This document shows, piece by piece, positions 4,926 through 58,837 of a DNA stretch of 64,000 nt (position 1 is its first letter; each line of letters starts with the position of its first letter). The stretch covers positions 463 through 64,462 of the forward strand of contig DASQOZ010000070.1 of NCBI GenBank assembly GCA_035644195.1, in the 5' to 3' direction. Both the position numbers and the translations under genes were made by a program. The stretch is from Candidatus Methylomirabilota bacterium. Its GTDB lineage: Bacteria > Verrucomicrobiota > Verrucomicrobiia > Limisphaerales > UBA11358. The notes below the pieces were generated by a model. It saw nothing but the letters and a program-made list of their open reading frames with translations, made no database searches and was not told where the DNA came from.

Positions 4926-5330
4926 ATGGACGCGATGCAAAAAAAGAAAATGTGGAAAGTGGCGGCGATACATTTGTTGCTTTCTCTACTTGCGATTTTT
5001 GGCGTTTTTTATTTCTTTTTTTTCTTGGGTGATTTTTTATATCTCCCCGTCACATTCTGGAGTAAGATGTGCATGTGGCTTCAACCTTTTTTCTGCCAAT
5101 TGTTCTTTTTCTTTCTAAAGGCTGATGCGGAAAATCTGGAAATTTCTTTGCTTATACAAATTCCACTGTATCTGTTTTGTATTTTAATTTGGAGCTTTTG
5201 TGTTGGTTGGCTTTATACAAAATTAGTTAGTTTGCTCAACCGTGATTCAATTCTCGGCAGAAAAGTTTTTTCAAATCGTAAATCGCAAATCATAAATCGT
5301 AAATTTCTATGCAAGTCACTTCACTTTTAA
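4926..5330 (+). CDS. Hypothetical small membrane protein (AT-rich)
   Basis: 134-aa ORF that is very hydrophobic and Phe/Leu-rich, with lower GC than its neighbours. Its 3' end runs through a heptamer repeat and overlaps the ATPase start. I recognise no family. Confidence 0.3.
   Translation: MDAMQKKKMWKVAAIHLLLSLLAIFGVFYFFFFLGDFLYLPVTFWSKMCMWLQPFFCQLFFFFLKADAENLEISLLIQIPLYLFCILIWSFCVGWLYTKLVSLLNRDSILGRKVFSNRKSQIINRKFLCKSLHF
5273..5304. repeat. Heptanucleotide tandem repeat (AAATCGT-like, about 4.5 units)
   Basis: aaatcgt aaatcgc aaatcat aaatcgt aaat, ending 5 nt before the ATPase ATG at 5309. Confidence 0.8.
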
Positions 5331-15735: not shown

Positions 15736-16500
15736 ATGTCCACCCTCATTTGCTTCGCCCTGAAAGAAGAAGCCGCGCCGTTTCGGAAAATCGCGGCGGG
15801 TATCAGCTTGCGCCGCGACCACCATGTTTCAATTTTGCTCACCGGCATCGGCCGCCAGAACGCCGAAAAATCCCTGCGCGAATTTCTGAATTCTTGTAGG
15901 AGTCGAGGTAACCAGACTCAAATTAAAGAAGAGTTAGAGACTCCTCACGTCGTCTCCTACAAACCGGATTTGGTGCTGACCTGCGGTTTCGCCGGCGGAC
16001 TGAATCCAGAATTGAAACTCGGCGACGTGATTTTTGAAATTTTCCCCAGTAGCAGCCGACGTGAGTCGGCTCAAACTGAAACCGGAAATCAATCAGAGCC
16101 GATTGACATCGGCTGCTACGATAAATTGATTGCCGCCGGCGCAAAGCCCGCAAAAATTTTCTGCGCCGACCGCATCGCCACGACCGTCGCCGAAAAGAAA
16201 AAATTGCGCGACGAAACCGGCGCTGATGCCGTCGAAATGGAATCGGCGGCGATCCACGTCGTCTGCCGCGAACGCGGCATTCCCTGCGCCACCGTCCGCG
16301 TGATCTCCGACACGGCCAATGAAGATTTGCCGCTGGATTTCAACACGCTTTCCAAGCCGGACAAGAATCTGGATTTTGGAAAATTATTCCTGGCCATCGC
16401 CAAATCGCCCGGAAAAATTCCCGCGTTGATGCAGTTGCAGAAGAAAACCAAATTCGCGGCGGAGCAACTGGCGGCGGTTTTGGAGAAAATAATCCGGTAG
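15736..16500 (+). CDS. PNP/UDP-1 family nucleosidase (MTA/SAH nucleosidase or HpnG-like) carrying two in-frame repeat insertions
   Basis: LLTGIGRQNA, CGFAGGLNP and DAVEMESAAI are typical of MtnN/HpnG-type phosphorylases. It lies convergent to the hopanoid-type genes. Confidence 0.6.
   Translation: MSTLICFALKEEAAPFRKIAAGISLRRDHHVSILLTGIGRQNAEKSLREFLNSCRSRGNQTQIKEELETPHVVSYKPDLVLTCGFAGGLNPELKLGDVIFEIFPSSSRRESAQTETGNQSEPIDIGCYDKLIAAGAKPAKIFCADRIATTVAEKKKLRDETGADAVEMESAAIHVVCRERGIPCATVRVISDTANEDLPLDFNTLSKPDKNLDFGKLFLAIAKSPGKIPALMQLQKKTKFAAEQLAAVLEKIIR
15895..15961. repeat. GTAG...CTAC palindromic element (copy A), in-frame in nucleosidase CDS
   Basis: tgtaggagtcgaggtaaccagactc ...aaattaaagaagagtta... 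gagactcctcacgtcgtctcctaca, translated CRSRGNQTQIKEELETPHVVSY. Confidence 0.8.
16049..16119. repeat. GTAG...CTAC palindromic element (copy B), in-frame in nucleosidase CDS
   Basis: gtagcagccgacgtgagtcggctc ...loop... gagccgattgacatcggctgctac, translated SSSRRESAQTETGNQSEPIDIGCY. Confidence 0.8.
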
Positions 16501-24789: not shown

Positions 24790-24805
24790 TTTTTATCCGC
24801 AATAA

Positions 24806-24866
24806 TTTCAACGCTGCCAGAAAATCCTTCGACAGCGGCGCTTCAAATTTCACCGGCCTTTTCGTG
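24806..24866 (-). pseudogene. Remnant of RluA/RluD-family pseudouridine synthase 3' end (direct repeat copy 1)
   Basis: The minus-strand reading is KRPVKFEAPLSKDFLAALKLL. It resembles the Rlu C-terminus (HP-TG-x-x-FEAPLP-D). It is a repeat of 25466-25526, with a 26/27 identical core. Confidence 0.45.
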
Positions 24867-24870
24867 CGTT

Positions 24871-25185
24871 TTAATTTTGTTTCAATTCTTCAATCAGTCC
24901 CGAAGCCAAAAGCTGCTCGAACAATTCATAGACCACCGGTCGGAAATTGATAAACACGCAAAAAATCACGCGCTCGCCGCGAACGGATTCCGCCTTGAAA
25001 ATCACCCGGTTGCGCCCGACCCGCAGCCGCGAATATCCAGCCAGCCGTCCTTCAAGCTGTTTCAAGTCGCCCATGTCTTTTTCCAGCCCTTTGATTCCAG
25101 CACTCAACACGCGTTTCGGTGACGGCGAAAGAGCTTTGATAAAATTTTCCGCGAATGGACCGATTTTTATTTTAGTCCTCATCAA
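24871..25185 (-). CDS. Type II toxin, RelE/ParE superfamily
   Basis: 104 aa with GYSRLRVGRNRVIFKA...VIFCVFINFRPVVYE, the typical RelE/ParE core. It overlaps the antitoxin gene by 14 nt. Confidence 0.7.
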   Translation of the reverse strand: MMRTKIKIGPFAENFIKALSPSPKRVLSAGIKGLEKDMGDLKQLEGRLAGYSRLRVGRNRVIFKAESVRGERVIFCVFINFRPVVYELFEQLLASGLIEELKQN

Positions 25186-25420
25186 AAACTTCGTCGAAAT
25201 CTTTGAATTTCATTTTGCCCGACTCGTAATCTTCCAGCGCCTTGAGGAATTTTTTATCGCCCAGCAATTCCATCGTCTCGATCATCGCTTCGATCCGGTC
25301 TTTGGAAAGATAAACGCCGACGACTTTGCCGTGCCGTGAAATGGCAAAGCTGTCCCGCTTGAGCAGCCGAGGCAGATTGGCCTGCGCTTCCGTCACATTC
25401 ACTGTAGATTCACTCTTCAT
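25172..25420 (-). CDS. Type II antitoxin, Phd/YefM family
   Basis: 82 aa with VNVTEAQANLPRLLKR...ISRHGKVVGVYLS and an acidic C-terminus. Confidence 0.75.
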   Translation of the reverse strand: MKSESTVNVTEAQANLPRLLKRDSFAISRHGKVVGVYLSKDRIEAMIETMELLGDKKFLKALEDYESGKMKFKDFDEVFDED

Positions 25421-25432
25421 TAACTGTATAAT

Positions 25433-25621
25433 TCATCGCTTTGTGGATTTGGTCAAGCGGAGAAACTTCAACGCATCGCGAAAATCCTTCGGCAGCGGCG
25501 CTTCAAACGTCATTTCCTTTTTTCGCGCGTGCAGCATCACGCGCGGCACGCCGGCGTAATCGCGTCTGCGGCCACCTTGCCGGGATTTGTTCAAAGAAAT
25601 TTTTTGCAAAAATGTGGCATC
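25433..25621 (-). pseudogene. Remnant of RluA/RluD-family pseudouridine synthase C-terminus (direct repeat copy 2)
   Basis: The open minus-strand frame reads ...GRRRDYAGVPRVMLHARKKEMTFEAPLPKDFRDALKFLRLTKSTKR*. The LHA and FEAPLPxDF motifs are present with an internal deletion. No catalytic domain lies upstream. Confidence 0.45.
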
Positions 25622-29202: not shown

Positions 29203-29292
29203 TGGCGGAAGGGGTGGGATTCGAACCCACGGCAGCCTTGCGACTACTCCTGATTTCGAGTCAGGTGCCTTTAACCACTCAGCCACCCTTCC
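29203..29292 (-). tRNA. tRNA-Ser (anticodon CGA), encoded CCA
   Basis: The reverse complement is GGAAGGGTGGCTGAGTGGTTAAAGGCACCTGACTCGAAATCAGGAGTAGTCGCAAGGCTGCCGTGGGTTCGAATCCCACCCCTTCCGCCA. It has a 7-bp acceptor stem, the anticodon loop CT-CGA-AA, a long variable arm and a GGTTCGAATCC T-arm. Confidence 0.9.
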
Positions 29293-32114: not shown

Positions 32115-33794
32115 TCACGAACCCATCATACTTCTCAACGGTAAAAATTCCAACTCCGCTCCCGCTTCCAACTCCGCACAATTCACCGGCACGCGAATCA
32201 GCGCGTTCGCCGCTGCGAAGCAAGTCACGTCGCCGGAACTCGACCATTTCAGCGGATGCAAATTTATTTCGCCGTTCAAAAACTCCAACCGTGCCGGCCA
32301 GAGCGTTTCGCGCGGACACGGCTTGTCGTCCAATTTTGTGGCGAGCCTGCCACGCATAAATTTTGGCGCAATTTCGCCGGTCAGTTTCGCGAGCGCCGTG
32401 GCGACGGCGAAATGAAAACAGACAAAATGCGAGAGCGGGTTGCCCGGCAAACCAAACGCCACGCGCGAACCGTTCACGCCGAAGATGAGCGGCTTGCCAG
32501 GACGCACGTTGACTTGTGAAAAAGCGGTTTCAAAACCGAGCCGTTCCAGCAGCGGACGCGTGAAATCTTTGTCGCCGACACTCGCTCCTCCGGAAATCAA
32601 AATCAAATCCGCCGCCGCGATGCGGTTCAAATCAAGTTGCGCCCACGCCGCCTCAAAATTTTCCGGCAGATGTTTCTGGTCCAAGTCACACGAAAAGTTT
32701 TGCAACAGGCCGCGAATCAAAATCGAATTGCTGTCGCGGATTTGCCCCGGCTCCGGCGTTTGATCAGGCGGAATAATCTCATCGCCCGTCGTGAAGTGTG
32801 CCACGCGCAATCGTGGACTCACCAGCGGCTGCGTGCAGCCCGCCGTCGCCAGCAACGCGAGTTTGCCCGCGTCCAGCCGCACGCCGGATTTCATGAGCGG
32901 CTGTCCAGCCTTCACATCTTCGCCGCGCTTGCGGAGGCTTGATCCACTTTCGAGTTTTGTGATTTTAATTTTGTCGCCGTTGCGCTCGACGTGTTCCTGC
33001 ATTACTACGCGCACACCGTCGCACGGCAACGCCGCGCCCGTCGCCACGCGCACCGCTTCACCGCGCCGGAGCAGGCGCGGTTTCCAATCCGCCGCGTGGA
33101 TCGTGTCCACGATTTGAAAATTGTCGGACGCATCATCGGCCAGAATTGCGTAACCATCGCGCGTGGAGCGGTCATTCGGCGGCAAATCTTCCGGCGCGCA
33201 AACCGTTTCGCGCAGCACGCGGCCAAAAGATTCTTCCAGCGGAACGCGAACCGGCGGCAACGGCTGGCAGCTCGAACTGATTTCCGAAATAGCTTCGTCC
33301 AACGATTTGTAGGAGACGACGTGAGGGGTCTCTGATTTTTTTGAAGTGAGACTCGTCACCTCGTCTCCTACAAAATCAATTGGCAACGCGCGTCGTTTCC
33401 AGATCGGCACGTCGCGTTTGAGGCCATCCATGAATTCGCCGGTCAACGCGATGGCTTCCGCGCGATGCCTGGCGGCGACGCCAAGATAAATTGCCGTTTC
33501 GCCGACGGGAATGATTCCGACGCGATGAATCACTTTGGCGGCGAGACACGGATGCCGCGTGGAAATGTCCTGAATCAGCCGCCGGATTTCGCGCGCGGCC
33601 ATTTCAGGATAGGCTTCATATTCAAGCGCGGAAATTGTTCCGCCATTTTCTTCATCACGGACCAAGCCGCGAAATTCAATCCACGCACCAAGCGCGGTCT
33701 TTGCAGACGGCCACCATTGCGGCGGAGAAATTTTTTCCGCAATCGGTCCTTTCGTGAGTTGAATTTCAATTTCCATGCGACAAAATAATTTCAT
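32115..33794 (-). CDS. MoaE-MoeA fusion protein (molybdopterin synthase catalytic subunit + molybdopterin molybdenumtransferase)
   Basis: The N-terminal roughly 145 aa are MoaE-like (EYEAYPEMA...DVPIWKR). The rest is MoeA-like (SLDEAI...RSTRDGYAI...SGGASVGDKD). The joint is the repeat-encoded DFVGDEVTSLTSKKSETPHVVSYK. Confidence 0.85.
   Translation of the reverse strand: MKLFCRMEIEIQLTKGPIAEKISPPQWWPSAKTALGAWIEFRGLVRDEENGGTISALEYEAYPEMAAREIRRLIQDISTRHPCLAAKVIHRVGIIPVGETAIYLGVAARHRAEAIALTGEFMDGLKRDVPIWKRRALPIDFVGDEVTSLTSKKSETPHVVSYKSLDEAISEISSSCQPLPPVRVPLEESFGRVLRETVCAPEDLPPNDRSTRDGYAILADDASDNFQIVDTIHAADWKPRLLRRGEAVRVATGAALPCDGVRVVMQEHVERNGDKIKITKLESGSSLRKRGEDVKAGQPLMKSGVRLDAGKLALLATAGCTQPLVSPRLRVAHFTTGDEIIPPDQTPEPGQIRDSNSILIRGLLQNFSCDLDQKHLPENFEAAWAQLDLNRIAAADLILISGGASVGDKDFTRPLLERLGFETAFSQVNVRPGKPLIFGVNGSRVAFGLPGNPLSHFVCFHFAVATALAKLTGEIAPKFMRGRLATKLDDKPCPRETLWPARLEFLNGEINLHPLKWSSSGDVTCFAAANALIRVPVNCAELEAGAELEFLPLRSMMGS
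33308..33372. repeat. GTAG...CTAC palindromic element (copy C) at the moaE/moeA joint
   Basis: tgtaggagacgacgtgaggggtctc tgatttttttgaagt gagactcgtcacctcgtctcctaca. The arm sequences are closest to copy A. Confidence 0.8.
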
Positions 33795-44762: not shown

Positions 44763-45632
44763 TCAAGCATGGTTGAATGCGGTTAAATTATTTTTGACGG
44801 CTGGCGGCAAAACGTTTTCCACGGGCGACTGTTCGATTTTTGGCATGACGGTTTTCCGATGCGCGCGGACTTCGAGAAATTCAATCAACTGCTCGCGCAG
44901 TTTGTAATAATCGGGATGCTCCATGACGGCCTTGCGCTCGCGCGGGCGCGGAAACTTCACGTCCATGATTTCGCCGACTGCCGCCGCCGGGCCGTCGGTC
45001 ATGCAAACGATGCGGTCGCTCAAGAACAACGCCTCGTCCACGTCATGCGTGACCATGAGCGCGGTGATTTTATTTTTGCGCCAGAGTTCGATGAGGACTT
45101 GCTGCAATTCGTAACGCGTGAGCGAGTCGAGCATCCCAAACGGCTCGTCGAGCAAAAGCATTTTCGGCTTGAGCGCAAACGCGCGCGCGATGCCGACGCG
45201 CTGCTTCATGCCCTGCGAAAGTTCGGCGGGCTTTTTATGCATCGCATCGCCGAGGCCGACGACGGTGAGATAGTATTCGACGATTTCGCGCCGCTCCTGT
45301 TTGCTTGCCGTGAAAAAGACTTGCTCGACGCCGAGCAGCACGTTTTCGTAGGCCGTCATCCACGGCAGCAGCGAAGGCGATTGGAAAACCACGCCGCGAT
45401 CCGGTCCCGCGCCGGAAAGCTCACGCCCGGCCAGAATGATTCCGCCGTCGGAAATTTCATTCAATCCGGCCAGCATCGAAAGCACCGTGGATTTTCCGCA
45501 GCCGGAATGCCCGATGAGCGTGACAAATTCCCCTTTCTGGATGTTCAGGTTGAAATCCTTGACGATCACCGCGTCGCCCTTTGGCGTCGGATAAACCTTC
45601 GCAAGGTTCGAGAGTTCGACGTAATTGCTCAC
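44763..45632 (-). CDS. nrtD: Nitrate/sulfonate/bicarbonate-type ABC ATP-binding protein (NrtD-like)
   Basis: Walker [10 protein letters not shown], signature LSQGMKQR and Walker B LLLDEPFG. Confidence 0.8.
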
Positions 45633-46534
45633 GAGTTGACCTCCACGGATTCTTCCTTCATTTCATTTTTGCGAATTGGCGTCTTGCGCCAGCCCGTCAT
45701 GTTGCGCGGGATGTTCAAATCTTCCGGCTCGATGTCCGGCAAAATCAATTTGCGCGTGATGGCCGTGTGCCGCTCCTGCTTCGAGCCGAGCATGAATTCC
45801 ACGATTTCGCGGCGCAGTTGCTTGAAATGCGGGTCGTGGTTGATGGATTTGCGGTCGCGCGGACGCGGAATCTCAACGGTGAAGCTCGACCCCAGCGTTG
45901 CGCCCGGCCCGGCGGTCAGCGGAATGATCCGGTCTGCAAGATAAATTCCCTCGTCAGGATCGTTCGTGATCATCACGACGGTTTTTTTGTCGTCGGACCA
46001 AATGCGGGAAACTTCGTCCTGCAACGTCGCGCGCGTGAGCGCATCGAGCGCGGAAAGCGGCTCGTCGAGCAATAAAATTTGCGGATCCATCGCCAGCGCG
46101 CGCGCGACGGAAACGCGCTGCCTCATGCCGCCGGAAAGTTCGCCCGGCTTTTTATCGCGCGCGGGCGTGAGATTCACCATCGCGATGTATTTCTCGACGT
46201 GCGCTTTTCGTTTGTCGTCCGACCAATTGGGATTCACAGCTTCGACGGCGAGCAAAATATTTTCAAATACTGTCAGCCACGGTAGCAGCGAATAATTTTG
46301 AAAAACAATGCCGCGATCCGGTCCCGGCTGCGTGATCTCCAAATCGTTCAACATCAGCGAACCGTTGCTGGGCTTGAGCAAACCCGCGATGAGCGAGATG
46401 AGCGTCGTCTTGCCCGCGCCGGAAAAACCGACGATGGCGACGAACTCACCTTTTTCGACGGACAGGTTGATGTCTTTCAACACCGGCGAGCCGCCGAAAT
46501 TTTTCGAGATGTTTTTGAGTTCGAGATAAGCCAC
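45629..46534 (-). CDS. nrtC: Nitrate/sulfonate/bicarbonate-type ABC ATP-binding protein (NrtC-like, no NrtA-like C-domain)
   Basis: A GTG start at 46534, 6 nt after the nrtB stop, gives (M)[14 protein letters not shown]. Walker [10 protein letters not shown] and signature LSGGMRQR. Confidence 0.75.
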
Positions 46535-50826: not shown

Positions 50827-50866
50827 ATTTCGAGTCAGGTGCCTTTAACCATTCAGCCACCCTTCC
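50827..50866 (-). pseudogene. tRNA-Ser 5'-half copy (nt 1-40, through the anticodon loop)
   Basis: atttcgagtcaggtgcctttaaccattcagccacccttcc matches 29253-29292 with one mismatch, in the same orientation. Confidence 0.8.
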
Positions 50867-51002
50867 AGCCGAAACCTCAAAAATTAAACCAGCAAACTTT
50901 GTCGCGGTAAATCTTAATCCGGTGAACAACCCGCGTTTGACTATTCAACCGCGATTCACTAATGTCGCACCTCGTAAAATACAACAAAGGGAATTCAAAA
51001 TT

Positions 51003-52052
51003 ATGGCAACCAAATCTGAAAAAAACGCTGTTGAAATCAAAGCCGCGCCGTCGCACGCCCGCGAACTCGAAGCCGCCATTTCCAGCATCCACAAAAGTTA
51101 CGGCGACGGCGCGATCATGCGGCTCGGCGACGCGCAATCGAAAGTCAAAATCGGAATCATTCCCACGGGCGCGCTCGCGCTCGATCTTGCGCTCGGCGTC
51201 GGCGGCATTCCGCGTGGACGTGTGATTGAAATTTACGGGCCGGAATCTTCAGGCAAAACGACGTTGATGCTCCACGTCATCGCCAACGCGCAAAAATCCG
51301 GCGGACTCGCCGCGTTCATTGACGCCGAGCACGCGCTTGATCCCGCTTACGCAAAAAAACTCGGCGTGAACCTCGACGACCTGCTCGTCTCGCAGCCGGA
51401 TTCCGGCGAAGAAGCGCTGACGATTTGCGAAACGCTCGCGCGCTCGAACGCGCTCGACGTCATCGTGATTGATTCCGTCGCCGCGCTCGTGCCCAAAGCC
51501 GAACTCGAAGGCGAGATGGGCATGGCCACGATGGGAATGCAGGCGCGGCTCATGTCGCAGGCGCTTCGCAAGCTCACCGCGATCCTCGGCAAGTCCAAGA
51601 CCACCTGCGTTTTCACGAATCAATTGCGCGAAAAAGTCGGTGTCATGTTTGGCAGCCCCGAGACGACGCCCGGCGGCAAGGCGCTGAAATTTTACGCGAG
51701 CGTGCGCCTCGACATCCGCCGCAAGGAAACGCTCAAGGACGCCGCGCAAAATCCGATTGGCAACCACGTCCGCGTCAAGGTCGTGAAAAATAAAGTCGCG
51801 CCGCCGTTCGCCGAGGCCGAGTTCGACATCATTTACAATCACGGCATCAATAAAGAAGGCAGCATCCTCGACGTGGGCATCACCGACGGCGTCGTGGACA
51901 AAAAAGGCGCGTGGTTGCAATTCGAGGGCGAACTCATCGGGCAAGGCAAAGAAGCCGCGCAAAAAGCGCTCGTCGAAAAACCTGCGCTCGCAAAGAAAAT
52001 TGTGGATGCGATTTTGGCGAAGCGAAATGGCGTGACGGCGGAAGAAAAATAA
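51003..52052 (+). CDS. recA: Recombinase RecA
   Basis: [17 protein letters not shown] (Walker A) and the L1/L2 loop regions. I prefer the start at 51003 (MATKSEKN). Confidence 0.95.
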
Positions 52053-52064
52053 ACGGCAACGACG

Positions 52065-52460
52065 ATGAAAAATCTTTTCAAGATTGTTGTAACAATAATC
52101 TTGATTCTCATCGTCGTTTTTGTGCTTTTTGTCGTGATCGTGCGTTCACTTTTTATCGTAATGCCGATGCCGACGAATTCAATGAAACCGCTACTCACAA
52201 CCAATGATGTTGTTGTAGCTAAAAAACGGTTTGACATTTCATCGCTTAGCAACGGAGATTTAGTTGTCGTAAATCTTTCGATACCGGACGGAACTAAAAT
52301 TCTCACGGTTCGGATAATTGATCAGCGAACAAATACTCCTGCTGGTCAATTCTATTTAAGCGCGGCTAGCACTAATGGCATTGATTCTAAATTTCTTGGA
52401 ACACTGCCAGCAACTGACATTCGCGGTAAAGTCATTCACATTTTTAAGGGTGCCTATTGA
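52065..52460 (+). CDS. Short S26-family signal-peptidase-like protein
   Basis: AT-rich. N-terminal TM helix, box B-like PTNSMKPLL, and box E-like NGIDSKFLGTLPATDIRGKV. No clear box D Lys. Confidence 0.4.
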   Translation: MKNLFKIVVTIILILIVVFVLFVVIVRSLFIVMPMPTNSMKPLLTTNDVVVAKKRFDISSLSNGDLVVVNLSIPDGTKILTVRIIDQRTNTPAGQFYLSAASTNGIDSKFLGTLPATDIRGKVIHIFKGAY

Positions 52461-52465
52461 CACCC

Positions 52466-52520
52466 AAGCCGTTCTTGCTTTCCGCGCCAGACCAAGCCAT
52501 TTTTTCAAGCCCGCACAGCG
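52466..52520. repeat. 55-bp direct repeat, copy 1 (flanks MazF TA cassette)
   Basis: aagccgttcttgctttccgcgccagaccaagccattttttcaagcccgcacagcg. It is 53/55 identical to 53314-53368. Confidence 0.85.
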
Positions 52521-52531
52521 TTTTATAAAAT

Positions 52532-52603
52532 TGTAGCAGCGGACGTCAGTCCGCTCTGATTTATCTTAAAAAAGAAATGAGCCGGCTCACGTCGGCTGCT
52601 ACA
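52532..52603. repeat. GTAG...CTAC palindromic element (copy D), intergenic
   Basis: tgtagcagcggacgtcagtccgctc ...tgatttatcttaaaaaagaaat... gagccggctcacgtcggctgctaca. Confidence 0.8.
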
Positions 52604-52645
52604 ATTATCCTCGACAATAGCCTGAATTCAGCCTACATTTAGTCT

Positions 52646-52945
52646 ATGAAAATTGCCGGTCGTGCCCGTTCCCGAAAAACGAAAGTCAATTTGCGCTCGC
52701 AACTGTTCACGTTGAGCAATGCCAAAACGTATTTAGGCCGCCTGATGGAAAAAGCCGGTCGCGGCGAGACGGTTTATATTGTTCGCGGCCATCGCCGGTT
52801 CGTTTTGCAGGAAGTTCCAGAAATTGAACCCATTCCTGTTCGTCCGGCGGGATATTTTGCCAACGCTTACAGCAAGGCGGAAATTCAGGAAGAAAATCGG
52901 CTCGCCAAATCTTCGGTGATTCGCGCGCCCAAAGACCTTGAATAA
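52646..52945 (+). CDS. Type II antitoxin (Phd/YefM-like or AbrB-like partner of MazF)
   Basis: 99 aa with FTLSNAKTYLGRLMEKAGRGETVYIVRGHRRFVLQEV. It lies 8 nt upstream of the toxin gene. Confidence 0.55.
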   Translation: MKIAGRARSRKTKVNLRSQLFTLSNAKTYLGRLMEKAGRGETVYIVRGHRRFVLQEVPEIEPIPVRPAGYFANAYSKAEIQEENRLAKSSVIRAPKDLE

Positions 52946-52953
52946 AGGACGCG

Positions 52954-53292
52954 ATGAAGCAATGGGATATTTTCATGTTTCCGTTCAGCAAGGAGCGGCG
53001 GCATCCGGCTGTCATCATTTCCAACGACGAAACCTGCCAGAATCCCGACGTTGAAGAAGTGAACGCCCTGCTTTGCACGTCGGCCAAAGTGAATCGCGAG
53101 CCAAAAACCACCGAAGAAGTTTTGGACGAAGCGGACGGGCTGGATTGGAAAACAATGGTGCGTTGTGATAAAATCCATTTGCTGCCGAAGGAACGATTTG
53201 ATGACCAAAAGGGAAACGTCACCGACGAACGGCGATATTTAATTGCCCGCAAAATGATAGAAACTTTAAGGCTGCCGATTCATCGCAGGTGA
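52954..53292 (+). CDS. Type II toxin, MazF/PemK family
   Basis: WDIFMFPF...RHPAVIISND...ALLCTSAKV...MVRCDKIHLLPKERF matches the PemK fold pattern. Confidence 0.7.
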   Translation: MKQWDIFMFPFSKERRHPAVIISNDETCQNPDVEEVNALLCTSAKVNREPKTTEEVLDEADGLDWKTMVRCDKIHLLPKERFDDQKGNVTDERRYLIARKMIETLRLPIHRR

Positions 53293-53313
53293 CTTTAACC
53301 GAATCGTCATCCG

Positions 53314-53368
53314 AAGCCGTTCTTGCTTTCCGCGCCAGACCAAGCCATCTTTTCAAGCCCGCAAAGCG
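53314..53368. repeat. 55-bp direct repeat, copy 2
   Basis: aagccgttcttgctttccgcgccagaccaagccatcttttcaagcccgcaaagcg, ending 12 nt before the ATG at 53381. Confidence 0.85.
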
Positions 53369-53380
53369 GGATTTTTATAC

Positions 53381-55009
53381 ATGAGTGACGTTTCCGATCT
53401 CGGTCTTGATTTGGAGAATCTGTTTCAGCCCGCGTGGACGCAGGCAAAAACGGAATCCAAGCGCTTTGAAAAATTTACCGGACTCGAAGGCGTAAAGCCC
53501 GAACGCCGTTTCAGCGATAAACCCGGCGAACGTCGCGGCCCGCGTCGTGATTCCGGCGGCGGTGAACGTCGTGGCGGCCCGCCGCGCGGTGGTTCCAAAT
53601 TTGGTGGTGGCGACCGCAAGAAATCTTTTGGCCAACGTGATGACAATCGCGGTGAACGCCGCGAGCGTCCTGAACCGCCCGCGCCATTGCCGGAAATTTC
53701 CGTCACTTTTGTTGCCGATGAGAATGGCGTTGAATCTCTGTCCCGCCAGATCAAGATGACAGGGCGTTGCTATCCGCTCTTTCAAATCGCGCAACTGGTT
53801 TTGGATAAGCCGGAGCGTTATTCCGTCCAGCTTGGCGTGAAGAAAAAATCCGACGGCGCGATTGCGCAGCAACTTTTTGTTTGCGCGCTCGACGACACGC
53901 CGTGGCTTTCGGAAGACGAAGCCGTCGAGCATGTCCTTAAAAATCATTTCGCCACGTTTTATCAGGCTGAACGCACGGCCACCGAGCCGCCGAAGGGCAC
54001 TTACACGTTTGTCGCGCAATGCGGTTTGAGCGGCGCGATTCTCGGCCCGCCGAATTATCACGATTACCAAAATCAATTGCGCAAGCTGCACACGGAAAAA
54101 TTTTCACGGATGCCGTTCGACATGTTCAAGGCGCGCGTAAAAATCGTGAAGGACGAAGTGGTCGTCAAAAAATGGATTGAGGAGCAAAGTTTCAAGACGG
54201 AATACGCCTGCCTCAACGTGCCCGAACCGCTCAAGTTGCCGACGATGGAAGAAGTTGAAAAACATTTTCGCGCGACGCACAAGGATTCAATCATCAAGCA
54301 AGCCGAGAAACATACGGTCAGCGGCGTGGTGAGCAGGAATTTGAAGAGCCGTGAATTGTATCGGCTCGTGCGGACGGAATGGGAAAATCAAAAACATTTC
54401 CCGCTACAATTGGCGACGGCGTTGAGCAAACAATTTGCGTCGCTCGGCCTACAATTTTTCAAGGTCAACAAAATGGCCGTGCATGTCAGCGTGGCGCGCC
54501 CGCAATTTTTGGATTTGGAGACGACGCCGGTTTCGGAAAACATCAAGCGCATTATTGGCTTCATCAGCACGAATCCAAGATGCACGCGACGGAAATTGAT
54601 TGAATCGCTCGCGCCCACGCCGCCAAAGCCTGCGGTTCTTGAAGTCAAACCGGATGAGCCGAAAGTTGATGCGCCCGACGGGCCGACGCCGGAACAAACG
54701 GCGTTGATTGCCGACTTGCATTGGCTGATTCATCAAGGCCACGTTTTGGAATTTGCCGACGGTCGGATGGAGACGGCGAAGAAACCGTTGCCGCGCCCGC
54801 CGAAACCGGAAAAGAAAACGGACGAAACAAAATCCGCCGAAGAAAAGCCTGCGACGGAAGGCGAAATTGTTTCAACGGATCCGGTGCCTCAAGCCGAAGC
54901 AGAAATTTCCGCGCCAACTGGATCATCGGCACCCGTGCCTAAATCGGTTCAATCTGAAGCCACTTTGGACGAAGCAAAGCCGACGGAAGAAGTTCCGTCG
55001 CCGTCTTGA
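53381..55009 (+). CDS. Hypothetical protein with N-terminal RGG/Arg-Gly-rich region
   Basis: 542 aa. The N-terminus is ERRGPRRDSGGGERRGGPPRGGSKFGGGDRKK and the C-terminus is Pro/Glu/Lys-rich. It sits directly upstream of a DEAD-box helicase. I recognise no family. Confidence 0.5.
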   Translation: MSDVSDLGLDLENLFQPAWTQAKTESKRFEKFTGLEGVKPERRFSDKPGERRGPRRDSGGGERRGGPPRGGSKFGGGDRKKSFGQRDDNRGERRERPEPPAPLPEISVTFVADENGVESLSRQIKMTGRCYPLFQIAQLVLDKPERYSVQLGVKKKSDGAIAQQLFVCALDDTPWLSEDEAVEHVLKNHFATFYQAERTATEPPKGTYTFVAQCGLSGAILGPPNYHDYQNQLRKLHTEKFSRMPFDMFKARVKIVKDEVVVKKWIEEQSFKTEYACLNVPEPLKLPTMEEVEKHFRATHKDSIIKQAEKHTVSGVVSRNLKSRELYRLVRTEWENQKHFPLQLATALSKQFASLGLQFFKVNKMAVHVSVARPQFLDLETTPVSENIKRIIGFISTNPRCTRRKLIESLAPTPPKPAVLEVKPDEPKVDAPDGPTPEQTALIADLHWLIHQGHVLEFADGRMETAKKPLPRPPKPEKKTDETKSAEEKPATEGEIVSTDPVPQAEAEISAPTGSSAPVPKSVQSEATLDEAKPTEEVPSPS

Positions 55010-57313: not shown

Positions 57314-58837
57314 TCACTCCAAAATTTGCCGTAGCAAAATTTGAAAAACTTCCGTTGATTCAATTTCTTTCACGCCCAAAAATTCTGGCCTTTCACTGAT
57401 GATGACCGGCCAATCGCGTTTGTCCGCCGGACGCCGTCCGTGCGAACCTTTCACCAGCGTCGCGTCGAGCGGAATCACGTCCATCAACATCCGCAGGCCG
57501 AGTTTCTTTTGCAGCAGCCGCCACGCGATTTTTAATTTCGGCAGCGGAATCTTCGGGTCGAGAAACAATTCCACCGGGTCGTAGCCGGGTTTGCGATGGA
57601 TGTCCACCGTCCGCGCAAAATCCGGCGCGCGCGCGTCGTCGAGCCAGTAATAATAAGTGAACCACGCGTTCTCCGGCGCGACGGCGATTAAATCTCCGGC
57701 GCGCGGATGGCCAATGCCCGCTTCGGCCTTTTCCTTTGCACCGAGGACGGTCACGTCCACCTCGACCTGTTTCTCCAGCACGTCGCGCACTTTCGATTCG
57801 AGCGAGCGGTCGTTCAAATAAATGTGCGCGACTTGATGATCGGCCACGGCAAAAACTTTGCTCGCGCCCGCGTCGAGAATTTCCATGCCGAGTTCGTCTT
57901 TGATTGCAAGCCAGCCTTTTTGCCGGAACAAACGGTTCAAATGAATCGGCGCGTCCACGTTCGTGATGCCGTATTCGGAAAGCAAAACGATTTTCACGCC
58001 GCGCGCGCTGAAATATTTGATGAGGTCGCCGACGATAGAATCAATCGCCTGCAAATCGGGAATGATTTTGGGATTGGTGGAACAAGCGTCCCGCTTGTTG
58101 AATTCGGCGTCTCGCCGAATTTTATTTCCGGAAGAATTTTCCGGCGGGACGCCGGAATGAACAGGCGAGACGCCTGTGCCACCCACATAAACGCCATGCC
58201 GCTGCAAATTGTAATCCAAATGCGGCAAATAAATCAGGTTCAGCGGCGGCGCGTATTTATTTTCAATCCACTTCGCCGATTCCGCAATCCAGCGCGTCGC
58301 GCAATCAGCAGAGCCTTGCAACGTTTTGATTCCCGCCGCTGGTCCCCAAAATCCGAAGAACGGAAATTCGCCCAAATCTTTTTTGATTTCTTCGCGGATG
58401 GAATATGGCCATGAATAAATGTCGAAAACTTTTCCGCCGTCGGCCTTGTAAATCGGGCGCGGCGTGATGGAATAATCCGCGCTCGAATACATGTTGAACC
58501 ACCAAAACACATTTGCGATTGATGATTTACGATTTACGATTTCAGATTGTTTTCGGAGTGCGTCCCAGATTTTTTTGCCGTGAACGATGTGATTCGATTG
58601 TTTCCAAAATTGAACTTCAGACAATTCACGATTATGCCAGCCGTTGCCGACGATGCCATGGTCGCGCGGTAATTTGCCGGTGAGATAATTCGATTGTGCC
58701 GTGCAGGTGACGGCGGGAAACGCGGGCGCGATGTGCGCGAGCGCGCCGCGTTTACGAAATTCCGCGATGCGTGGCGTATGTTCGCCGATGAGCGCTTCGG
58801 TGAGGCCGACAACGTTGATGACCGCGACACGATTCAT
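57314..58837 (-). CDS. Alkaline-phosphatase-superfamily nucleotide pyrophosphatase/phosphodiesterase (EboF-like)
   Basis: N-terminus VINVVGLT...AFPAVTCTAQSNYLTGKLPRDHGIVGNGW (metal/Thr nucleophile region). An ATGA overlap joins it to the upstream DHQS-like gene. It carries two repeat-derived in-frame inserts. Confidence 0.7.
   Translation of the reverse strand: MNRVAVINVVGLTEALIGEHTPRIAEFRKRGALAHIAPAFPAVTCTAQSNYLTGKLPRDHGIVGNGWHNRELSEVQFWKQSNHIVHGKKIWDALRKQSEIVNRKSSIANVFWWFNMYSSADYSITPRPIYKADGGKVFDIYSWPYSIREEIKKDLGEFPFFGFWGPAAGIKTLQGSADCATRWIAESAKWIENKYAPPLNLIYLPHLDYNLQRHGVYVGGTGVSPVHSGVPPENSSGNKIRRDAEFNKRDACSTNPKIIPDLQAIDSIVGDLIKYFSARGVKIVLLSEYGITNVDAPIHLNRLFRQKGWLAIKDELGMEILDAGASKVFAVADHQVAHIYLNDRSLESKVRDVLEKQVEVDVTVLGAKEKAEAGIGHPRAGDLIAVAPENAWFTYYYWLDDARAPDFARTVDIHRKPGYDPVELFLDPKIPLPKLKIAWRLLQKKLGLRMLMDVIPLDATLVKGSHGRRPADKRDWPVIISERPEFLGVKEIESTEVFQILLRQILE
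58081..58177. repeat. Composite of four consecutive short hairpins, in-frame inside phosphodiesterase CDS
   Basis: aacaagcgtcccgcttgtt, aattcggcgtctcgccgaatt, ttccggcgggacgccggaa and acaggcgagacgcctgt. The stems are 7-8 bp and the loop cores GTCCC/GGGAC and GTCTC/GAGAC are mutual reverse complements. Confidence 0.75.
58517..58551. repeat. Heptanucleotide tandem repeat (GATTTAC-like x5 = reverse complement of the 5273 unit) inside CDS
   Basis: gattgat gatttac gatttac gatttca gattgtt, read on the minus strand as QSEIVNRKSSI. Confidence 0.75.

Follow-up and report, generated by a model that had tools for sequence, protein, structure and literature searches.

A direct repeat matching a conserved gene leader brackets a MazF-family toxin–antitoxin cassette beside recA

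Introduction

How toxin–antitoxin (TA) modules that reside in chromosomes move without visible mobility genes is an old open question. The locus described here poses it in concrete form. In a 64,000-nucleotide (nt) stretch of contig DASQOZ010000070.1 (assembly GCA_035644195.1), which we call the window, a MazF-family TA cassette lies between recA and the gene for a conserved protein of 542 amino acids (aa), P542, and is bracketed by long, nearly identical direct repeats. An earlier note, made from the letters of this DNA alone, had read the repeat as a duplicated fragment of the 5′ leader of the next gene, had found it too long for the target-site duplication of a transposase, and had seen in the bracketed layout, present around two TA modules in the window, a hint of a common, uncharacterised mechanism of TA insertion. 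What, then, produced the repeat? Comparison with orthologous loci identifies it as the predicted leader of P542, which is single in relatives, and reveals two simpler alleles whose halves the window combines. We lean towards the view that the window allele arose by one homologous and one illegitimate join between two leader-bearing alleles, and not as the footprint of a transposase.

Results

The repeat and the interval it encloses

The two copies of the repeat occupy positions 52463–52520 and 53311–53368, 848 nt apart from start to start, and agree at 55 of 58 positions, so that the 55-base-pair (bp) repeat with 53 matches first described is borne out and slightly lengthened. The similarity may run 7 bases further (TTTTATA) past a 4-nt gap, to 52527 and 53378. 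A 35-nt core of the repeat occurs exactly twice in the window, against none expected from 100 shuffles, and local alignment of the flanks of the MazF module gives a score of 104, against 16.3 ± 2.2 for shuffled sequences, none of 300 of which scored as high. As had been claimed, only a palindrome, a 99-aa open reading frame (ORF) and a PemK/MazF ORF lie between the copies, and 12 nt separate the end of copy 2 from the ATG of the next gene at 53381 (Table 1).

The identical repeat–cassette structure is present in three independent metagenome contigs besides the window (L001–L003; ENA ERZ27253148, ERZ27253149 and JGI 3300012930), which come from different samples and assemblers. This bears on the concern that the structure is an artefact of assembly or binning, a chimeric join of two strain variants: the sequences are metagenome-assembled, and strain variants of this site coexist in soils. 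Such an artefact is scarcely credible, given the recurrence of the structure across samples and assemblers, the differences between the copies at 3 of 58 positions, and the length of the repeat, which is shorter than the k of 141 suggested by the contig names (k141_...).

Table 1. Coordinates of the features between and including recA and P542, counted from the first letter of the window.
Feature	Position	Strand	Remarks
recA	51003–52052	+	PF00154, E 1.4e-130; 349 aa in L001–L003; left border of the hotspot; ends with GAAGAAAAATAA
S26-signal-peptidase-like ORF, 131 aa	52065–52460	+	PF10502, E 2e-10; accessory insert, component of allele A
Leader copy 1	52463–52520	+	cut inside the hairpin (directly after CCCGCACAGCG); leader-profile nhmmer E 1.3e-5
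Novel junction	52521–52528	+	A/T-rich filler TTTTATAAAATT (52521–52532) running into the palindrome
REPIN-like GTAG...CTAC palindrome	52529–52606	.	78 nt; 28-nt arms, 86% complementary; two inverted GTAG-headed hairpin units
Cassette promoter/operator (candidate)	52610–52645	+	candidate −35 TCGACA 52611–52616, palindrome CTGAATTCAG 52622–52631, −10 TACATT 52634–52639; consensus scan
Putative antitoxin, 99 aa	52646–52945	+	ends 8 nt before the toxin
PemK/MazF-family toxin, 112 aa	52954–53292	+	PF02452, E 4.4e-8
Spacer from MazF stop to leader	53293–53310	+	18 nt, CTTTAACCGAATCGTCAT
Leader copy 2	53311–53380	+	full length; predicted working 5′ region of P542
P542	53381–55009	+	conserved 542-aa protein; right border of the hotspot; DEAD-box helicase next

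The repeat corresponds to the leader of P542

Eighty orthologous loci were fetched by way of P542, whose protein identity among them is 58–79%; most carry Verrucomicrobia labels, and some bins are evidently mislabelled. The gene order recA, P542, DEAD-box helicase is conserved among these loci. Where P542 does not abut recA, its ATG is in most cases preceded by a leader of about 75 nt that reads ccGAAGCnGCGCTTGCTTTCC, about 11 nt, CAATCCATGCTAtGAT...TTTCAACCCCGCgtgtCGGGGCATTTTTtAC-ATG. An nhmmer profile of this leader finds one match per locus in 34 relatives and two only in the window strain, and an exact 27-mer scan of a metagenome collection yielded three further contigs, each with one copy upstream of P542. 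The earlier suggestion of a duplicated leader piece is thus upheld, copy 2 being orthologous to a conserved leader that stands once before the P542 ATG in about 40 related loci. On the strength of these alignments, we identify the 58-nt repeat as the leader of P542, comprising probably a promoter and the 5′ untranslated region.

A tentative organisation of the leader can be read from its conserved parts. Loci with a gap of 123–138 nt between recA and P542 display, by eye, apparent recA terminator hairpins ahead of the leader and, because recA has a separate terminator in these loci, we infer that the leader must supply the promoter of P542. The candidate promoter is TTGCTT-17-CAT(G/C)(C/T)T, behind which a 5′ hairpin with a U-rich tract is predicted. 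In copy 2 the corresponding elements are TTGCTT-17-CATCTT, the hairpin CCCGCAAAGCGGG (53358–53370) and a T-run ahead of the ATG, the hairpin and T-run having been flagged by a scan. A leader variant in which an 11-nt deletion removes the TGCTAnnAT box is found in the window and in L093, L084, L004/L085, L086 and L009. Copy 2 is identical to the L009 leader (L009:5926–5994) at all 69 of 69 positions, the two recA genes being 82% and the two P542 genes 74% identical, which implies either very strong constraint or recent exchange. The last 4 nt of the spacer behind the toxin gene (TCAT) also precede the leader in L009.

Other identities for the repeat were set aside. A dispersed repeat or miniature inverted-repeat transposable element, the alternative under which the earlier note would have abandoned its proposal, does not fit a sequence that has two copies in 64 kb, is single in relatives and always before P542, and is carried by no contig of the viral contig collection in an exact 27-mer scan; the 58-mer is a locus-specific leader. 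A structured RNA or riboswitch was likewise rejected, as no Rfam family other than tRNA reached the gathering threshold and the copies fold no better than shuffled controls (z +1.4 and −0.4), nor are they attC-like. The small minus-strand ORFs that start in each repeat (52356–52508 and 53219–53356; MK[KR]WLGLARKARTA...) were taken to be by-products of the duplicated leader, not genes. A sigma-54 promoter and a LexA box within the leader were dropped by eye for unfit spacing or motif.

Three alleles of the recA–P542 interval

Relatives of the window strain carry simpler versions of the interval. In allele A, which was found through homologues of the S26 ORF (L093–L095), the order is recA–S26–leader–P542 with no TA module, the S26 stop being followed by 3 nt, one leader and P542. 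The earlier note had proposed a search for relatives with a single repeat copy and no TA module, and, as far as the alignments tell, allele A is a true empty site of this kind. The L093 locus, whose S26 and recA products are 88% and 93% identical to those of the window, aligns continuously with positions 51779–52520, stops exactly at 52520 and resumes at 53312; the left junction of copy 1 and the right junction of copy 2 are therefore ancestral. Formally, the window differs from allele A by 790 inserted nt (52521–53310) and a 58-nt duplication. At 58 nt, or possibly about 66, the duplication far exceeds the fixed 2–15 bp of transposase target sites, as had been pointed out. The ORFs of the 790-nt insert include no transposase, integrase or recombinase, the flanks not having been searched, and its ends (TTTTATAAAATT... 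and ...CGAATCGTCAT) are not inverted repeats by eye, a formal search not having been made.

In allele B the order is recA–MazF cassette–leader–P542. It occurs in four independent assemblies (L102–L105), in which the toxin is 92% and the recA product 88–93% identical to that of the window. The recA stop codon TAG abuts the −35 box of the cassette; between the MazF stop and P542 stand 14 nt and then a single leader. L102–L105 lack the S26 ORF, the palindrome and any flanking repeat, and L102 aligns continuously with the window from 52611 to 55007. An 11-mer shared between the flanks in L102 lies inside coding regions and was dismissed as a chance match. The window carries a third allele, C, with the order recA–S26–leader[1–58]–REPIN–cassette–leader–P542. 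By alignment, allele C is the left part of allele A, up to leader position 58, followed by the right part of allele B, from just upstream of the cassette promoter.

The cassette also occurs outside this interval, between glnA and pyrC (L087, L089, L090) and between the genes for agmatine deiminase and IleRS (L088). At these sites homology to the window is limited to positions 52604/52610–53293, that is, from the −35 box to the toxin stop, and the promoter stretch is the left limit of nucleotide homology to cassettes at three other genomic sites. The copies lie at L087:3663–4340, L088:3650–4332 and L102:1786–2467, the one in L088 abutting the convergent IleRS stop. Neither the palindrome nor flanking repeats accompany the homologous cassettes at the glnA–pyrC and agmatine deiminase–IleRS sites, and copies at three or more unrelated sites come without mobility genes or repeats. 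Among other inserts of at least 400 nt between recA and P542 in the genome loci (L001 excluded), none of 17 has flanking direct repeats. The common insertion mechanism at which the earlier note had hinted for TA cassettes is not supported by these observations: in L102–L105 the same TA family occupies the same hotspot beside a single leader and without any duplication, the very finding named in advance as fatal to the proposal, and the two other cassette loci and 17 other hotspot inserts also lack repeats. The missing brackets at glnA–pyrC, at IleRS, in allele B and at the 17 hotspot inserts suggest that TA insertion does not of itself generate repeats.

Exchange at the recA–P542 hotspot

The interval between the recA stop and the P542 ATG measures 12–31 nt in 31 loci and 49–2683 nt in the remainder of the 80. 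From the comparison of these loci, the stretch from recA to the leader of P542 is an insertion hotspot, occupied by differing accessory genes across this soil Verrucomicrobiota clade. The cargo, identified by eye from ORF translations with no family search, includes BrnT/BrnA-like TA pairs (L062, L079, L086), a putative two-gene module that is possibly DUF4926/DUF6883-like (L007, L010, L012, L020), DNA methyltransferase or restriction genes (L023, L042) and, in other loci, small membrane or secreted ORFs.

The recA gene of the window is itself a mosaic. Over 51210–52052, compared in blocks of 120 nt, it is in one block 99% identical to L094, in the next 97.5% identical to L102 and further on 96.7% identical to L062, and the same relatives are only 77–86% identical to it in other blocks; L065 is also among the relatives with blocks at 97–99% identity. 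The nearest relatives differ by side, the 3′ end of recA being closest to L093 and the 5′ end of the P542 gene to L084. The pattern indicates, as far as block-wise identities can tell, frequent homologous exchange among these soil Verrucomicrobia.

A probable join of two alleles and its rivals

It seems to us rather probable that the window allele is the product of one homologous and one illegitimate join between two leader-bearing alleles. The leader end that alleles A and B have in common would be the basis for the joining. If the S26 allele was imported into a TA-bearing chromosome, the homologous crossover would have fallen in recA; if, alternatively, the TA allele was imported into an S26-bearing chromosome, it would have fallen in the leader or P542. 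In the illegitimate join, the S26-side leader would have been attached at its position 58, midway through the hairpin, to DNA that lies about 20 nt, plus the REPIN palindrome, ahead of the −35 box. The leaders of both parents would thereby be retained and would bracket the cassette in the manner of a target-site duplication. The process would be an outcome of homology-facilitated illegitimate recombination (HFIR), although the same product could come from an 848-nt fragment that had circularised and crossed over once in the leader. The predicted parent would have the order recA–REPIN–TA–leader, with the junction TTTTATAAAATTGTAGCAGCGGACG preceded by the end of recA. We infer the order and enzymology of these steps from the arrangement of the alleles.

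Joins of this one-sided homologous and illegitimate kind have been proposed for the orphan immunity-gene arrays of type VI secretion system clusters in V. cholerae and of Rhs loci (PMC5361080, which cites de Vries & Wackernagel 2002 and Prudhomme et al. 2002 for HFIR). In the present case both parental arrangements exist in nature (L093–L095 and L102–L105), and homologous exchange is evident in the flanks, from the mosaic recA and from the incongruence of the two sides. The cassette differs from that of L102 at 14% of positions and the 3′ end of recA at 12%. Since these divergences are similar, the data fit a cassette long resident at the site, into which a recA-3′/S26/leader segment would have been imported from an L093-like genome.

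Several observations weigh against this reading. The nearest alleles are only 86–92% identical to the window, and the actual parents are not among the sampled genomes, which precludes a reconstruction of the illegitimate junction and a demonstration of microhomology. Behind the MazF stop, the window has 18 nt before the leader and L102 has 14 nt of different sequence, so that the TA–leader arrangements of the two may go back to separate insertions. A join of two alleles does not account for the 12-nt filler and the REPIN palindrome at the junction. Nor can the copies be cleanly sorted by parent at the three positions where they differ, the loop base of copy 1 matching L102 and copy 2 matching L009; assignment of the leader copies to parents by these positions was given up as uninformative. 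As for the leader, its promoter hexamers are weak (3/6 each), and its hairpin is conserved in sequence, with no covariation among 36 sequences. Finally, a second TA module within the same 64 kb is also flanked by repeats of about 50 nt, an odd coincidence if both pairs record rare illegitimate events.

The ancestral outer junctions and the 790-nt insert can be read differently, because the structure is formally a target-site duplication and fits a de novo insertion of the cassette into an S26–leader–P542 allele equally well. The 58-nt duplication might then have arisen by repair of a staggered double-strand break, from two nicks 58 nt apart that were filled in, or by a replication fork that stalled at the leader hairpin or the REPIN, copied the cassette from elsewhere and re-entered upstream. 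Consistent with such routes, the duplication ends on its right within the hairpin, and a very stable palindrome lies 8 nt away; CCGAATCGT in the spacer is similar to CCGAAGCCGT at the start of the leader, perhaps as a trace of microhomology; the cassette has moved among at least three loci with sharp promoter-to-stop borders; and the second TA module is similarly bracketed. We nevertheless hold de novo insertion to be doubtful. The same cassette family occupies L102–L105 and two other loci without a duplication, no other hotspot insert has one, and no donor locus with matching flanks was found. It also demands a special event for a structure whose two halves are already found in natural alleles.

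The second TA module and a possible dedicated mobility system

The second module, at a locus between a GIY-YIG gene and the PPi-PEPCK gene, consists of a Phd/YefM-like antitoxin gene (25172–25420, minus strand) that overlaps a 104-aa RelE/ParE-like ORF (24871–25185, minus strand). Its repeats, at 24804–24852 and 25464–25512, are 49 nt long and 84% identical, weak similarity perhaps reaching about 100 nt; the flanks align with a score of 58, against 16.4 ± 2.3 for shuffled sequences (0/300 as high). On the minus strand both copies translate as ..FEAPL(S/P)KDF..ALK.., and the repeat seems, from this translation, to derive from a transglutaminase-like gene remnant, of which it would be the 3′ end, and hence to be local sequence. 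Only weak homology links copy B to a transglutaminase-like fragment in L097, at the 3′ end of that fragment. No empty site was obtained, the context upstream of the PPi-PEPCK gene being unconserved in L097–L101. The part of the earlier claim that holds is therefore that both TA modules are bracketed by repeats; the part that finds no support is a novel mechanism shared by both, as the repeat pairs are unrelated and the cassettes elsewhere are unbracketed.

A dedicated, as yet uncharacterised system of the kind hinted at in the earlier note, one that moves cassettes by way of attachment or duplicated sites of about 50–60 bp, whether site-specific-recombinase-like, integron-like or integrase-less and mobilisable in cis, would account for two TA modules within 64 kb between direct repeats of 49–58 nt, for a downstream repeat that starts 18 nt past the toxin stop in both, and perhaps for a 21.5-kb segment of the same window between copies of a 41-nt tRNA-Ser repeat. 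We regard it as very improbable. Each repeat pair is local to its site, one being the P542 leader and the other the 3′ end of the transglutaminase-like remnant; the fold of the 58-mer is not that of an attC site; the 790-nt insert, the part that was searched, contains no integrase; the leader is single next to P542 in about 40 loci, some without a history of insertion nearby; and the cassettes elsewhere have no brackets.

A related view drops the attachment sites and supposes a recurrent or dedicated insertion of promoter-to-stop TA units that duplicates about 50–60 bp of target, both brackets in the window being its footprints. Widely staggered nicks or primed fill-in, conceptually like the duplication of repeats in CRISPR arrays, would be the means, and the brackets would since have been lost from older insertions, among them allele B and the glnA–pyrC copies. 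We consider this improbable.

Components of the cassette and the junction

The toxin matches PF02452 with 33.7 bits, against a gathering cut-off of 23.1, over profile positions 1–105 of 109. It has 733 homologues, of which the best 120 are 79–93% identical, and the few matches with organism names are Verrucomicrobia metagenome-assembled genomes (MAGs). No match to the cassette was found in plasmid and phage collections, on which ground a plasmid or phage vehicle was discarded. The 99-aa ORF upstream gives a faint Phd/YefM signal (E 0.07) and no NCBIfam match; a partner ORF of 97–112 aa precedes MazF in L087, L089–L092 and L102–L104, none being called in L088. Ahead of these genes the cassette carries a promoter-like site of its own, TCGACA-17-TACATT, with an internal 10-bp palindrome.

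The larger palindrome at the junction is predicted to fold with −44.3 kcal/mol (z −5.75). With it removed, AAAATT...CTCGACA resembles GAAAATTGCTCGACA, which lies upstream of the cassette in L087/L089. Because the palindrome is not part of the cassette elsewhere, being absent from L087–L092 and L102–L105, it is probably a secondary insertion or was already present at the recipient junction. A sigma-70-like site (TTTTCA-18-TAAAAT) crosses the new junction in a consensus scan.

The palindrome belongs to a GTAG...CTAC REPIN-like family with further members at 15893–15966, 16047–16121 and 33303–33340 and at L045:7646–7714; related copies occur in L045, L031 and L025. Two copies lie in frame in a 254-aa ORF (15736–16500), and one unit lies inside a 559-aa ORF (32115–33794) whose translation resembles a MoaE–MoeA fusion. 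These in-ORF elements are apparently translated as peptide inserts, to judge by the reading frames.

The S26 ORF matches TIGR02227 with an E value of 8e-12, just under its cut-off, and none of the 80 genome loci gave a match to it by tblastn at E ≤ 1e-4. An identical S26 protein is labelled by NCBI as coming from a Methylomirabilota MAG; related loci are mostly from Verrucomicrobia, and the contig is probably mis-binned.

P542 matches nothing in Pfam or NCBIfam. Its N-terminal region is rich in Arg and Gly, a DEAD-box helicase gene lies downstream in most of the 80 loci, and the protein is a candidate RNA- or DNA-associated factor. The short distance to recA, often only 12–31 nt, suggests that the two genes are co-transcribed where they adjoin.

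Further observations in the window

A 41-nt fragment at 50827–50867, 55 nt upstream of recA, is 98% identical to the 5′ part of the tRNA-Ser(CGA) gene at 29203–29292. A whole tRNA-Ser gene occupies that position upstream of recA in L102, L065, L012, L016 and L081, and in L097, as in the window, tRNA-Ser directly follows the PPi-PEPCK gene. Gene and fragment are separated by 21.5 kb that hold molybdenum-cofactor genes, further large ORFs, components of an NMT1-type transporter and a LysR regulator, and that look like an insertion or rearrangement bracketed by the tRNA repeat, no integrase having been noticed.

Between 45115 and 46326, stretches 917 nt apart are 76–77% identical (45115–45238 with 46032–46155; 45325–45409 with 46242–46326) and look like tandem paralogous genes. 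A 32-nt inverted repeat at 5273–5304 and 58511–58542, 91% complementary and with AAATCGT-like heptamers, has its arms 53 kb apart.

Discussion

One hotspot beside recA offers a natural series of empty, TA-only and stacked alleles, and, if our favoured reading of two joined alleles is right, no more than ordinary recombination between alleles with a short conserved leader in common was needed here to place a TA cassette beside existing cargo. Such recombination would leave a long footprint that resembles a target-site duplication, and, as a caution, long direct repeats around small cassettes need not mean new integration machinery. The rearrangement would have spared the host gene: P542 should keep an intact leader. 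Copy 1, having lost the 3′ half of the hairpin, could drive the TA genes together with the cassette promoter. The 95% identity of the copies would permit RecA-mediated deletion of the 848-nt unit, against which the toxin should counter-select. The by-products of the analysis may be of more interest than the repeat itself, namely the hotspot at the recA operon junction, the conserved promoter-to-stop MazF cassette, the REPIN-like elements and the mosaic recA.

Comparison with known systems

The cassette resembles the MazEF/PemIK type II TA systems in its small ORF 8 nt upstream of a toxin with a PemK/MazF domain, in its predicted sigma-70-like promoter with a palindrome between −35 and −10, and in its patchy distribution. 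It differs in that its putative antitoxin is not MazE- or PemI-like by profile and gives the faint Phd/YefM signal instead, in that the family appears confined to chromosomes, with no plasmid or phage match in the collections searched, and in that it is unusually conserved, as the identities of the best 120 homologues attest.

Integration hotspots and defence islets hold variable cargo between conserved core genes. Here, too, a fixed core pair, recA and P542, encloses three TA families, restriction–modification genes and small membrane ORFs; unlike in those systems, the inserts measure 0.4–2.7 kb, sit in what is otherwise an operon junction of 20 nt, and have neither an integrase nor a tRNA target at the hotspot. 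In integrase islands bounded by attL and attR, a recombinase would be expected, whereas the 790-nt insert, to which the search was limited, has no recombinase ORF and other hotspot inserts lack flanking repeats. Integron cassettes and pdif modules can carry TA genes bracketed by repeats, and the window shares with them a promoter-to-stop TA unit between repeats of tens of bases. However, its repeats are not attC- or dif-like, no XerC/D-type AT-rich palindrome is apparent by eye, the cassette does not belong to an array, the 790-nt insert contains no integrase (flanks not searched, nor intI specifically), and the repeat is the leader of a host gene.

REP and REPIN elements are mobilised by RAYT transposases. 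The element at 52529–52606 is like them in its GTAG heads, its GC-rich hairpins in mutually inverted units and its several related copies in the window and in relatives, and unlike them in that some copies in the window lie in frame inside ORFs. As far as can be shown, the palindrome is carried along at the junction and did not give rise to the 58-nt repeat.

The locus is also like products ascribed to HFIR (PMC5361080): a conserved anchor is common to alternative alleles, the new module takes its place beside the old one without displacing it, the shared border stays behind in duplicated pieces, and mobile-element genes are absent. In the window the border is a non-coding leader of 75 nt, not a gene end, there has been one round only, and the mechanism is read from the alleles. 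Overall, the locus adds a new and well-documented example to known processes: a TA cassette of the MazF family at a recombination hotspot and the stacking of alleles.

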